From: an uncultured virus (IMG/VR IMGVR_UViG_3300006737_000026)
Taxonomy: Duplodnaviria; Heunggongvirae; Uroviricota; Caudoviricetes
Virus record (IMG/VR): IMGVR_UViG_3300006737_000026
Direction: 5' to 3' (one strand)
Length of the DNA: 64,000 bases
A model generated the notes under the pieces. It was not told the DNA's origin. It ran no database searches and worked only from the letters and a program-made list of their open reading frames with translations. Positions 54,824-61,720 of this stretch are shown here, in pieces; positions within the stretch are counted from its first letter, which is position 1; every line of letters begins with the position of its first letter. The translations under genes were made by a program, and so were the position numbers.

Positions 54824-55973
54824 GGAAAAGGAAATCGAGAAAATGACAGTATTTAACAAGAACAAAGTGAACACCAAAAAGCAACCCATGTTTTTTGGAC
54901 AACCTCTGGGTGTGCAGAGGTATGACGAGTATAAGTATCCAGTATTTGACAAACTTACGCAACAACAGTTAGGATACTTTTGGAGACCAGAGGAAGTATC
55001 GTTACAGAAGGACCGCAGTGATTACCAAACACTTACGCCAGAGCAAAAGCACATTTTTACCAGCAATCTTAAATACCAGATCATGCTGGATTCTGTACAA
55101 GGGCGCGGTCCTGGGATGGCTTTTATCCCTTACTGTTCACTCCCTGAGTTAGAAGCATGCATGACAGTGTGGGAGTTTATGGAGATGATTCATAGTCGCT
55201 CCTACACATACATCATTAAGAATGTGTATCCTAATCCTGGAGATGTGTTTGACACAATCCTGGATGATGAGAATGTTATGTCTCGTGCAGCATCAGTAAC
55301 TGAATCGTATGATACTTTTATTGCTCATGCACATGAGTATGATAACGGACAGATGTGGGACCTTGCACGTCAAGGACATACCACAGGGCAGTATGATCGT
55401 CGTGAGTTAAAGCGCAAACTCTACAGGGCAATTGCAAATGTCAACATCCTCGAAGGAATCCGTTTCTATGTGTCGTTTGCGTGCTCGTTTGCTTTTGGCG
55501 AGAATAAACTTATGGAGGGCTCGGCTAAGATTCTCTCTCTTATCGCTAGAGATGAAAGCCAACACCTGGTTATCACGCAGAATATCCTGAAGAAATGGAG
55601 AGAGGGTGATGATCCCGAAATGGCAATCATCGCTAAGGAAGAACAACCTGTCGTAGCAGAAATGTTCAGGAAGACTGTTGATGAAGAAAAGATGTGGGCA
55701 AACTATCTGTTCAAACAGGGCAGTATGATTGGTTTGAATGATCGTTTACTTCATAACTATGTTGAGTGGATTGCTAATCGCCGTATGAAAGCGATTGGTC
55801 TTGATCCAATCTATGACATTCCTGCTAAGAATAATCCATTGCCCTGGACAGAGCACTGGTTGAATTCTAAGGGACAACAAAACGCACCTCAAGAAACGGA
55901 GATTGAAAGTTATGTCGTCGGAGGAATCAAACAAGATGTCACAGCAAACTCCTTCGCTGGATTCAGTTTATGA
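54804..55973 (+). CDS. nrdB: ribonucleotide reductase beta subunit
   Basis: FWRPEEV, EMIHSRSY, EGIRFYVSF, RDESQH; GTG start after GGAGGA. Confidence 0.97.
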   Translation: MTVARFEEKEIEKMTVFNKNKVNTKKQPMFFGQPLGVQRYDEYKYPVFDKLTQQQLGYFWRPEEVSLQKDRSDYQTLTPEQKHIFTSNLKYQIMLDSVQGRGPGMAFIPYCSLPELEACMTVWEFMEMIHSRSYTYIIKNVYPNPGDVFDTILDDENVMSRAASVTESYDTFIAHAHEYDNGQMWDLARQGHTTGQYDRRELKRKLYRAIANVNILEGIRFYVSFACSFAFGENKLMEGSAKILSLIARDESQHLVITQNILKKWREGDDPEMAIIAKEEQPVVAEMFRKTVDEEKMWANYLFKQGSMIGLNDRLLHNYVEWIANRRMKAIGLDPIYDIPAKNNPLPWTEHWLNSKGQQNAPQETEIESYVVGGIKQDVTANSFAGFSL

Positions 55974-56079
55974 TGACCTGCTAGATGCAGGTAATGAGAT
56001 CGGTCCAGATGTGACAGACATGCTCTGGACCGCTGCTAAAAAAGAATCATTGAGAAAACATAAAAATGTATCACAATGA
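55936..56079 (+). CDS. hypothetical protein (47 aa)
   Basis: GGAGGA upstream; MSQQTPSLDSVYDDLLDAGNEIGPD... Confidence 0.45.
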   Translation: MSQQTPSLDSVYDDLLDAGNEIGPDVTDMLWTAAKKESLRKHKNVSQ

Positions 56080-56103
56080 ACTACTGGATATAAAAATCCA
56101 TGC

Positions 56104-56111
56104 TATAAATA
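56104..56111 (+). promoter_or_regulatory. T4-type late promoter
   Basis: TATAAATA heading the riboswitch locus. Confidence 0.75.
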
Positions 56112-56137
56112 GTATTGTGATGGATTCATCACATATA

Positions 56138-56175
56138 CGTTCATCCCTTCGGGGACGCAAGTAAGTCGCGGAACG
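56138..56175 (+). ncRNA. glutamine riboswitch-like aptamer, copy 1
   Basis: P1 CGTTC/GAACG, P2 TCCC-TTCG-GGGA, CGCA junction, as in glnA/downstream-peptide RNAs. Confidence 0.7.
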
Positions 56176-56178
56176 GAG

Positions 56179-56386
56179 CGTTCATCCCATGCTTGAGTTT
56201 TTACTCTACACTACACTCACATGTTCTCAGTCTGAGGCACTAGTGTTAAGGATTGAAAAACACCTCAACCTGGACCCTGAGGTTCAGTTAGAGTTAGTTG
56301 AGACCGTAAAGGAATCAGCACCCGAGTGTTATTGGGACGCACACGACTGAAGGAACGGGGGACTGCAAACCCTAACTCTTCAGGAG
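56179..56386 (+). ncRNA. glutamine-II (downstream-peptide)-like aptamer, copy 2, with enlarged P2 loop
   Basis: CGTTCA-TCCCA...TGGGA-CGCA-cac-GACTGAAG-GAACG; CTGAAG/CTTCAG pseudoknot at the downstream RBS. Confidence 0.6.
56189..56350 (+). CDS. 53-aa protein nested in riboswitch copy 2
   Basis: MLEFLLYTTLTCSQSEALVLRIEKHLNLDPEVQLELVETVKESAPECYWDAHD; GGAG upstream. Confidence 0.65.
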   Translation: MLEFLLYTTLTCSQSEALVLRIEKHLNLDPEVQLELVETVKESAPECYWDAHD

Positions 56387-56393
56387 AAGACTC

Positions 56394-56561
56394 ATGAACA
56401 CACTTACACAGATCCGTAAGCAAATTCAGAAAGCAGCACGTCTGCACGATGCTCAGATTCATCACACTACATATCGTGGTGTGGAATATGACACACGTTG
56501 TGTAGAGAACAAGGAGACCCACGGGACTTTCTGCTATCGTGGAAAAACTTACACCAAATAA
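56394..56561 (+). CDS. DUF4278-like small protein
   Basis: MNTLTQIRKQIQKAARLHDAQI with two YRGxxY repeats; AGGAG RBS. Confidence 0.8.
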   Translation: MNTLTQIRKQIQKAARLHDAQIHHTTYRGVEYDTRCVENKETHGTFCYRGKTYTK

Positions 56562-56585
56562 TCTTAACTATGTTAAGATGATAAC

Positions 56586-56610
56586 AAAGCACCCACATGG
56601 GTGCTTTTTT
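56586..56610 (+). terminator. intrinsic terminator
   Basis: AAAGCACCCA/TGGGTGCTTT plus a T run. Confidence 0.85.
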
Positions 56611-56646: not shown

Positions 56647-57303
56647 ATGAAAATCTTTCTGGACTGTTCTGATCCCGAGCTCATCGCTCAAGCATACGAG
56701 ACTGGTTTAATCGACGGAGTTACTACAAACCCCAGTCTCATGTTGAAAGCAGGCGAAGACCCTAAGAGTATTATCAAGGAAATTTCTCACATTTTTCCTT
56801 GGAACTCTTCGGTATCTGCTGAAGTAGTCGGAGAGACTGCTGAGGAAATGCTAGACATGGCAGAAGACTTCATCGAGATCGGACCAAACATTACAATCAA
56901 AGTACCATGCACACCCGAAGGTCTAAGGGCGTGTTATGAATTAACAACCAATGAAATCAGTGTTAACGTCACTCTGATATTCAGTTCAGCACAAGCAATA
57001 CTCGCTTCTAAGGCAGGTGCAACATACGTTTCACCTTTCGTGGGTAGAGTATATGACCAATCATTTGACGGTAATCAACTAATTGAGGAGATTGCAGATG
57101 TCTATGCTACACATCAGGCGAAGACCCAAGTCCTTGCTGCATCGATTAGGGATGTTCACCAAGTATCCTCTGCTTTTAGAGTGGGAGCTGATATTTGCAC
57201 TATCCCTATTACCATTTTTGATAAGATGTACAAGCATGTTCTCACTGACAAAGGGTTAGAACAATTCGATAAAGATTGGAAATCCCTTCAGGAGAAAATT
57301 TAA
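56647..57303 (+). CDS. talC: transaldolase (TalC type)
   Basis: MKIFLD, GVTTNPSL, ITIKVP, NVTLIFS, YVSPFVGR, LAASIR. Confidence 0.97.
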   Translation: MKIFLDCSDPELIAQAYETGLIDGVTTNPSLMLKAGEDPKSIIKEISHIFPWNSSVSAEVVGETAEEMLDMAEDFIEIGPNITIKVPCTPEGLRACYELTTNEISVNVTLIFSSAQAILASKAGATYVSPFVGRVYDQSFDGNQLIEEIADVYATHQAKTQVLAASIRDVHQVSSAFRVGADICTIPITIFDKMYKHVLTDKGLEQFDKDWKSLQEKI

Positions 57304-58101: not shown

Positions 58102-58289
<188 letters not shown>

Positions 58290-61585: not shown

Positions 61586-61618
61586 CATGAACGAATGAGG
61601 GTTTCCTCACTTTCACCC

Positions 61619-61720
61619 ACGCCTCACCAAGACTAAACAGCGTGGTAAAATAATAGTCTTTCATACCTCTGCTTAGGGTGCAGAGGAATAGTAACTCCAC
61701 CATTACCCTGATGGTCTTAC
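61619..61720 (+). ncRNA. PhotoRC-II-like psbA leader RNA
   Basis: Stems AAGACTA/TAGTCTT, CCTCTGC/GCAGAGG, ACCAT/ATGGT with complementary loops TAGGGT/ACCCTG, in the psbA 5' UTR. Confidence 0.7.

Follow-up and report, generated by a model that had tools for sequence, protein, structure and literature searches.

A protein-coding gene within a probable nested glutamine-sensing RNA of a T4-like cyanomyovirus

We analysed a stretch of 64,000 nucleotides (nt), here called the window, from an uncultured T4-like cyanomyovirus (IMG/VR record IMGVR_UViG_3300006737_000026). Positions 56138-56357 of the window probably form a single glutamine-sensing RNA domain of 220 nt, in which two aptamer cores are nested one within the other, a complete gene (open reading frame A, ORF A) occupies the P2b hairpin of the second core, and glutamine would regulate ORF A and the downstream ORF B reciprocally. 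An earlier sequence-only reading had described the locus as an interlocked tandem element with an ORF inside one aptamer, and every string that it listed was found at its coordinates. The gene within an aptamer hairpin, both of the proposed helices and the DUF4278-like gene were borne out by the analysis, but the simple tandem order of the two copies and an upstream NtcA box were not.

A conserved array of aptamer blocks

A blastn search with positions 56130-56400 matched 419 cyanophage records, 265 of which cover at least 80% of the query. All 20 of the 20 annotated relatives fetched, which represent different genera, carry the same blocks in the same order. The locus sample consisted of these 20 loci and two IMG/VR pattern scans of at least 120 loci each. 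The pattern of the first scan contained one N too many for the window's family and therefore returned mostly a sister family with a 7-nt J1. Unless stated otherwise, locus counts refer to the 261 sequences among the matches listed, of which 260 could be parsed and 248 were complete.

Both hairpins are compact in 104 of the complete loci, only the second contains a gene, as in the window, in 100, both contain genes in 36, and only the first does in 8. The linker between the two copies is 2-4 nt long in 248 of 248. In the 64 kb of the window there is a single match to the compact core pattern, with 0.02 expected, and the arrangement of the blocks is far beyond chance. A scan of genome contigs for a host origin, made with too loose a pattern, listed at least 121 loci, and 0 of the 121 listed had the full motif. 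Phage ACG-2014f (locus L020) represents the compact form, roughly 90 nt long, with CCAG-GAAA-CUGG as its second hairpin in place of the 143-nt insert of the window. The blocks of the two are alike except for the P2 stems, the linker, one base (CGCACA in the window, CGCAAA in ACG-2014f) and this insert in the P2b loop.

One type-1 aptamer assembled from two halves

The element begins with CGUUC #1 (56138-56142), followed by the P2a hairpin UCCC-UUCG-GGGA (56144-56155, strands at 56144-56147 and 56152-56155), the invariant junction CGCAAGUA (56156-56163), which fits the RF01739 consensus CGGAAGUA, and AGUCG (56164-56168). GAACG #1 (56171-56175), the linker GAG and CGUUC #2 (56179-56183) come next, the latter opening a second CGUUCA (56179-56184). 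The 5′ strand of P2b, UCCCA (56185-56189), leads into ORF A, and its 3′ strand, UGGGA (56333-56337), is followed by the inner-core junction CGCACA (56338-56343), of which CGCA is invariant, and by CGACU (56344-56348). The last block (56349-56357), composed of GAAG and GAACG #2 (56353-56357), equals the RF01739 consensus GAAGGAACG.

Neither copy holds a complete set of type-1 blocks. Copy 1 contains AAGUA and lacks GAAG, whereas copy 2 contains GAAGGAACG and lacks AAGUA. When the two halves are joined via AGUCG:CGACU, they give the exact type-1 consensus CGUUCA-P2-CG(G/C)AAGUA-(P3)-GAAGGAACG. The P2 hairpin follows CGUUCA immediately, as P2a does here, and P1 can form between CGUUC at 56138-56142 and GAACG at either 56353-56357 or 56171-56175. 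The two halves of the E-loop, AAGUA (56159-56163) and GAAGG (56349-56353), flank P3 in the nested reading only, and P3 itself is present, with a loop of 175 nt as compared with the usual 4-6 or so.

The Rfam models point in the same direction. ACG-2014f scored 41.1 bits on RF01739 (Glutamine; gathering threshold 35), and only when the segment from CGUUC #1 to AAGUA-AGU was aligned together with ACU-GAAGGAACG of the second copy, the inner 41 nt being placed as an insert in P3. The same nested alignment was returned for loci L120 (41.1 bits, above the threshold) and L021 (33.3 bits, below it). The window stays below the RF01739 threshold; its insert exceeds the span of the model. The nearest record (G001, a 46-kb fragment) gave no RF01739 match.

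On account of these three points, namely the consensus halves, the model score and P3, we chose the nested reading, and AGUCG:CGACU is better read as P3 of one type-1 (glnA) aptamer, to which copy 1 contributes its 5′ part and copy 2 its 3′ part. The proposal of tandem copies stands as far as the two sets of core blocks at 56138-56357 are concerned, but the nested Rfam alignment and the split of AAGUA and GAAG between the copies speak against a simple side-by-side order. Inside P3, GAACG #1, GAG and CGUUC #2 (56171-56183) can fold as a hairpin, the inner P1, and together with P2b and CGCA this makes a second junction with the cyclic order of the outer one. There are two candidate glutamine-binding sites in the nested and the tandem readings alike. 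In the known aptamer, the CGUUC:GAACG helix, which forms in trans upon glutamine addition, makes up the ligand site together with the G that follows P2, and the crystal contains domain-swapped dimers (Huang 2019, PMC6698751), which makes partner swapping between adjacent copies physically reasonable.

Covariation of the helices

Alignment A1 comprised 67 loci in which the first hairpin is compact and the second encloses a gene. The nested structure is paired in 98.4% of its cells, against 32-53% in slid controls. Both sides change in 9 pairs, against 2.9 in shuffled alignments, and none of 500 shuffles reached 9. The first 3 pairs of P2a all change on both sides, and so do 4 of the 5 pairs of P2b, in agreement with the long-range TCCCA/TGGGA pairing predicted earlier. 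That a whole conserved ORF lies within the P2 hairpin of the second core was confirmed in the 136 gene-bearing loci, where the P2b helix around the gene is paired at 5 of 5 positions in 117 and at 4 of 5 in 19. The stem types include CCCCA/UGGGG, UCUAU/AUAGA and GAUUA/UAAUC.

The two strands of P3 covary as well. The helix is paired in 100% of A1, and among the 260 parsed loci it has the form AGUCG:CGACU in 142. Compensatory forms are AGUCA:UGACU (4 loci), AAUCG:CGAUU (2) and AUUCG:CGAAU (1, P-RSM4), wobble forms are GGUCG:CGACU (4), AGUCG:CGGCU (2) and AGUCG:CGAUU (1), and no disrupting combination was found in the window's family among these loci. The five P1 pairs CGUUC/GAACG are invariant in 67 of 67 sequences.

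A further helix lies 3′ of the second core, where the element has its single platform for sequestering a Shine-Dalgarno (SD) sequence. CUGAAGG (56347-56353) and UCUUCAG (56377-56383) can form an OFF-state hairpin (56347-56383) that encloses P4 (56357-56360/56370-56373), and the first two bases of AGGAG (56382-56386), ORF B's ribosome-binding site (RBS), fall inside its strand CUUCAG (56378-56383). This anti-SD helix, CUGAAG/CUUCAG, is paired in 99.8% of cells in 67 sequences, and one of its pairs varies (G-C in 34, A-U in 20, G-U in 13), so that the helix next to the RBS claimed by the sequence-only reading is upheld. Positions 56340-56400 folded alone gave CUGAAGG/UCUUCAG around a small hairpin at -15.5 kcal/mol (z -2.7). 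As C56347 and U56348 are common to P3 and the OFF helix, and GAAG (56349-56352) is needed by the E-loop, the P3/E-loop state and the OFF helix are mutually exclusive. AGUCG:CGACU had been seen earlier as a long-range helix that competes with this one; it is such a helix and it does exclude the OFF helix, but it is P3 of a type-1 aptamer rather than a mere competitor. The small hairpin in the OFF-state loop (56357-56373) covaries too (GGGG/CCCU, GGA/UCC, GGAU/AUCC), and in some phages (loci L012 and L014 among those related) it is enlarged by an insert of 30-40 nt with its own hairpin.

ORF A, a gene interwoven with the proposed sensor

ORF A (56189-56350) encodes 53 amino acids and belongs to PHROG 504. 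The last A of the P2b 5′ strand is the A of its start codon, and in 127 of the 136 gene-bearing loci the ATG starts at this fifth base of P2b. Its stop codon (TGA, 56348-56350) lies within CGAC-UGA-AGG, its end falling 13 nt beyond P2b in 128 of 136 loci, and the last five codons and the stop are the UGG-GAC-GCA-CAC-GAC-UGA of the aptamer, whose core therefore encodes the tail WDAHD-stop. The lengths of the P2b span mostly step in threes (154, 157, 160, 163, 187 and so on). Where the OFF helix covaries, the stop is kept: UGA is found with CUUCAG, and UAA (CUAAAG) with CUUUAG. An SD-like GGAG (56175-56178 in the window, in the loop region of inner P1) stands right after GAAC of GAACG #1, at a distance of 10 nt from the ATG. 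It is present in 129 of the 136 loci with the gene and in 2 of 112 compact ones, counts that come from related sequences and are not independent.

The predicted conservation of this ORF was substantiated by a median ratio of nonsynonymous to synonymous substitution rates (dN/dS) of 0.36, obtained from 387 usable pairs out of 600 sampled, with the first codon and the last six alignment columns excluded; the corresponding value for ORF B is 0.43. Synonymous sites of ORF A are near saturation (median dS 1.5). The 128 copies correspond to 124 distinct proteins with two conserved cysteines, Cys12 and Cys47, as well as a helix resembling ELVET. Among the 51 ORF A homologues of an independent protein database, 47 have the C-terminal end DA[NH]D. 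Hence, ORF A is a protein-coding gene built into the proposed sensor.

The AlphaFold model of ORF A is a two-helix hairpin (predicted local distance difference test score, pLDDT, 83.1), which matched nothing in the PDB at E ≤ 0.001 (best E 3.1). ORF A has no Pfam family, the Atlas gives unnamed clusters only, all 51 homologues are unnamed or "hypothetical", and PHROG 504 carries no functional annotation. One homologue (P0008) reads through the embedded stop, with a tail ...WDANDWRNG..., from which it follows that UGA has changed to UGG within the aptamer GAAG block of that virus.

A proposed contest between ligand and ribosome

The gifB glutamine riboswitch is an ON switch in which the 3′ end of the aptamer pairs with the RBS, and masking of the RBS by this end until glutamine binds has been proposed; phages go unmentioned in that account (Klahn 2018, PMC6212724). 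We suggest that the phage element works along similar lines. Its outer core would be a type-1 three-way junction of P1 (56138-56142/56353-56357), P2a (56144-56155), AAGUA with GAAG, and P3 (56164-56168/56344-56348). P3 would open into a second junction consisting of the inner P1 (GAACG 56171-56175, GAG, CGUUC 56179-56183), A, P2b and CGCA. Without glutamine, CUGAAGG would pair with UCUUCAG and, together with P4, occlude the start of the AGGAG of ORF B. Glutamine would stabilise the nested fold. As P3 and the E-loop of this fold draw on the very CU and GAAG of the OFF helix, these bases would leave that helix and free the ORF B site, making the element an ON switch as for gifB. If so, glutamine should protect CGUUC #1, AAGUA, AGUCG, CGACU, GAAG and GAACG #2 and render CUUCAGGAG more reactive.

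The same fold would act on ORF A in the opposite sense. The A of the AUG and the preceding 10 nt would be paired in it and GGAG would lie in a triloop, for which reason ORF A output should fall with glutamine. Conversely, a ribosome initiating on, traversing or terminating ORF A would sit on the two strands of P2b and on the 3′ strand of P3, and the sensor could not form as long as ORF A is being translated. From this mutual exclusion of fold and ribosome it would follow that ORF A and ORF B are expressed reciprocally according to host glutamine. It is possible, and we put it forward tentatively, that the RNA is a two-output toggle with the ribosome as an anti-ligand, whose nested genes are paralogous and whose module duplicates, and which reads host nitrogen status. 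High glutamine would then turn ORF A off and the IF17-like ORF B on, and at low glutamine ribosomes on ORF A would hold the sensor open.

Alternative readings

Several observations weigh against the nested, reciprocally acting domain. In all Rfam scans the window's own element stayed below the gathering threshold. R1, a covariance model derived from 57 compact double aptamers, matched positions 56136-56243 with 28.1 bits (E 6e-7), but only the 5′ half was correctly aligned; because R1 could not bridge the 143-nt insert, this match is no test of the whole element. The P1 strands being invariant, the partners of CGUUC and GAACG are not separable by covariation, and tandem pairing scores as well as nested pairing on the P1 helices. 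P3 of the sister family, GGACGG:CCGCCC in 88 loci plus 12 variants, is one base longer on each side and always has an A.C or A.A mismatch, which we regard as neutral to slightly negative evidence. The minimum free energy fold of 56118-56400 beats shuffles modestly (z -2.0), and the aptamer junctions are not in it. Only 2 of the 5 bases of the SD lie within the OFF-state helix. Finally, a ribosome terminating on ORF A would open the anti-SD helix and could couple ORF B to ORF A.

This last point can be extended to a different mechanism for the same nested structure, in which termination at the ORF A stop melts the anti-SD helix and turns ORF B on, and the riboswitch mainly sets ORF A translation. 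The stop does lie inside the 5′ strand of the anti-SD helix, with 31 nt between it and the SD of ORF B, it keeps its place in 128 of 136 loci, and it is preserved through the UGA/CUUCAG and UAA/CUUUAG covariation described above. However, the compact relatives, which lack ORF A, retain both the anti-SD helix and ORF B, and so the platform works without a nested gene. We consider coupling of this kind rather unlikely.

An improbable reading is that of a plain tandem doublet, in which the aptamers at 56138-56175 and 56179-56357 act independently and pseudo-cooperatively, as glutamine doublets have been described to do (Sherlock 2022, PMC9481103), with a second aptamer that just puts up with a gene in its P2 loop and with AGUCG:CGACU as a kissing contact or a competitor. 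CGUUCA, a P2 helix, CGCA and GGAACG do occur in each copy, and the P1 pairs fit this reading equally. At the gathering threshold, Rfam gave no glutamine-related match in the window. A permissive scan picked up copy 1 only, at 26.8 bits on Glutamine-II (RF01704, threshold 33) and 25.8 bits on RF01739. Furthermore, copy 2 with the CUGAAG/CUUCAG hairpin has the type-2 (Downstream-peptide) topology, in which GGAACG lies in the loop of the second hairpin, as it does in the window. The second copy of ACG-2014f scored 32.1 bits on RF01704, and the second core of the window could not be scored because of the insert.

Yet the gathering threshold is reached by the nested alignment and by no single copy: single-copy matches in the window and its compact relatives range from 25.8 to 32.9 bits, all below it. 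The suggested search with the glnA and Downstream-peptide models thus failed at the gathering threshold in the window itself, and succeeded, with glnA in nested form, in ACG-2014f and L120. Nor are there two complete riboswitches, each with its own platform, as in the Sherlock 2022 doublets; only 3 nt (GAG) separate GAACG #1 from CGUUC #2, and the linker of 2-4 nt in all 248 complete loci leaves the copies with no expression platform between them. A tandem order also leaves copy 1 without GAAG and copy 2 without AAGUA, although together they match the type-1 consensus exactly. P3, moreover, covaries.

It is very improbable that the second aptamer was destroyed when ORF A was inserted and that the blocks persist in a decayed switch as coding sequence or by descent. 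The 3′ core is indeed read as codons (WDAHD-stop), and protein constraint could explain part of its conservation, but the non-coding blocks (CGUUCA before the ATG, GAAGGAACGG after the stop) are equally invariant, compensatory changes are seen in P2b and P3 from one side of the gene to the other, and the core never varies in spite of the median dS of 1.5 in ORF A. The idea that 56190-56332 is only a structured RNA spacer draws on the lack of a Pfam family, solved relative, fold match or assigned function for ORF A, and is scarcely credible in view of its dN/dS of 0.36, P2b spans stepping mostly in threes, two conserved cysteines, two-helix model at pLDDT 83, association with GGAG and 51 homologues.

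ORF B and its ribosome site

ORF B (56394-56561) encodes 55 amino acids and belongs to PHROG 545. Its assignment as DUF4278-like was corroborated by the family, 60 of 61 members of which match DUF4278 (PF14105) at E ≤ 0.01, the best at E 2.8e-6. ORF B itself scored 22.1 bits (E 2e-4), below the gathering threshold of 25.3, and two YRG motifs are invariant in the family. A single-sequence comparison with the PDB gave 0 hits and a profile comparison 3 chance hits (E about 2.5). DUF4278 marks IF17-like proteins, and the short marine forms are described as being without the C-terminal part of IF17 that is needed for binding to glutamine synthetase (Klahn 2018, PMC6212724). ORF B is presumptively an IF17-like regulator of glutamine synthetase.

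GUUCAU, present at 56140-56145 and 56181-56186, is complementary to AUGAAC at the start of ORF B (56394-56399), and the minimum free energy fold of 56118-56400 uses this pairing. It is weaker in P-TIM40 and P-RSM4, in which ORF B starts with AUGACU, and may be due to chance.

Promoters and the NtcA question

The motif TATAAATA (56104-56111) lies 26 nt before the aptamer and resembles the T4-type late-promoter consensus, which makes it a candidate late promoter by motif. It occurs 17 times among 225 related loci, and 15 of these copies are 24-28 nt ahead of CGUUCA. Most relatives have instead a TATAAT about 7-8 nt before CGUUCA. A sigma-70 scan near the element gave 2 sites against 3.0 expected, no better than chance.

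The NtcA box placed at 56068-56081 did not withstand scrutiny. The string GTA-N8-AAC is present, but it is non-canonical and off the position of the perfect boxes of the relatives. It ends 56 nt upstream of the aptamer, straddles the stop of the ORF before it (55903-56079) and belongs to a GTA-N11-TAC string common to the late-promoter class. Perfect GTA-N8-TAC boxes were found in 67 of 116, 13 of 17 and 87 of 92 related loci of three sub-families, and none in the window. They mostly end 38-47 nt before CGUUC #1, beside a TTGACA-like -35 element, an indication that transcription is under nitrogen control by the host in most relatives, though not in the window.

Between TATAAATA and the aptamer, the leader of the window contains a perfect palindrome, UGUGAUG-GAUU-CAUCACA (56116-56133), that can form a hairpin (-8.2 kcal/mol, z -2.7) and whose spacing is wrong for NtcA. 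In several relatives (L003, L005, L008, L014, L015, L018 and L019, among others) a GTA-N8-TAC palindrome takes its place, as an NtcA-box-like site over the likely transcript start.

Genes in the first hairpin

A gene of about 66 codons (PHROG 6471) occupies the first hairpin as well in S-IOM18, S-CAM1, S-TIM5, Sf-CH3 and P-RSM4. In 30 of 44 parsed loci with a long first hairpin, the first three bases of its 3′ strand are the stop codon of the gene, and this stop covaries with the 5′ strand, that is, with the bases before the gene's own start codon (UAAGA/UCUUA, UGAGA/UCUCA, UAGGA/UCCUA). The PHROG 6471 family is homologous to the ORF A family, PHROG 504 (hhalign 97.5%, E 7.7e-12, 38 columns), and a unit of aptamer half, gene and aptamer half seems to have been duplicated or moved. 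In loci L005, L006, L007, L012 and L018, the first hairpin encloses the 66-codon gene in such a way that its start and stop codons are base-paired to each other.

Genomic context

The element lies between the ribonucleotide-reductase region and the transaldolase gene, the latter represented by a TAL_FSA match in Pfam at 56647-57300 (E 1.2e-57), and the annotation of relatives places nrdB upstream and talC downstream of it. The terminator claimed after ORF B was recovered as an intrinsic-terminator-like hairpin (56586-56607; -14.2 kcal/mol, z -3.4) followed by a U run; 3 terminator-like sites were found against 0.9 expected in shuffles. Further downstream, Rfam identified a tRNA (58216-58289, 75 bits) and a PhotoRC-II RNA (61605-61699, 60.3 bits, gathering threshold 39).

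Implications and relation to known systems

Riboswitch aptamers are regarded as compact domains without coding function, and candidates with intervening ORFs are dropped from surveys. The glutamine sensor proposed here would span 220 nt; where relatives have two nested genes, its length would be about 430 nt. Its helices are shared with the start codon, the RBS, the last codons and the stop of the gene, and the element is conserved across many marine cyanomyovirus genera. As standard Rfam scans miss these elements, counts of phage riboswitches are too low. If fold and translation compete, the element would be a tractable natural system for the contest of ribosome and ligand over one RNA, and if our reading is true, it would show how a phage can sense the glutamine of its host and at the same time control an IF17-like protein with a possible action on glutamine synthetase.

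It is already known that T4-like cyanophages carry glutamine riboswitches (PMC9964418, PMC9602691), and glutamine riboswitch doublets are known as well (Sherlock 2022, PMC9481103). A literature search that did not cover Ames & Breaker 2011 and Ren 2015 brought up no paper that describes an aptamer with a gene inside it or a glutamine doublet of the nested kind.

The closest likeness is to the type-1 riboswitch (RF01739) in the Synechocystis gifB/IF17 leader, with which the phage element has in common the order of P1, P2, AAGUA...GAAGG and P3, a DUF4278 gene downstream and an aptamer 3′ end that can pair beside the RBS (Klahn 2018, PMC6212724). In contrast to it, the phage element is carried by a phage, stays below the Rfam gathering threshold and encloses in its P3 175 nt with a second core and a protein gene. 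Moreover, marine picocyanobacteria, including the likely hosts, are reported to have the type-2 (Downstream-peptide) aptamer only (Klahn 2018, PMC6212724). With the tandem glutamine riboswitches, recorded as 157 doublets and 4 triplets, it shares two sets of core blocks in a row. However, that survey set aside intervening ORFs or gaps of more than 300 nt, and the word "nested" is absent from its text (Sherlock 2022, PMC9481103); the phage copies, unlike tandem riboswitches, share a helix and enclose a gene.

The type-2 aptamer (RF01704) is resembled by the second core, which together with CUGAAG/CUUCAG puts GGAACG in a hairpin loop and likewise precedes a short ORF with YRG motifs. The scores of 26.8 bits in the window and 32.1 bits in ACG-2014f are below gathering, though, and the phage hairpin is an alternative to P3 and the E-loop. 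Group I introns carry homing-endonuclease ORFs in peripheral loops and are an established case of a functional RNA that tolerates an ORF. The phage RNA differs from them in that ORF A encodes a small conserved protein and no endonuclease, and in that the RNA would be a ligand sensor, with the start, the SD sequence and the stop of the ORF lying within the helices of the sensor itself.

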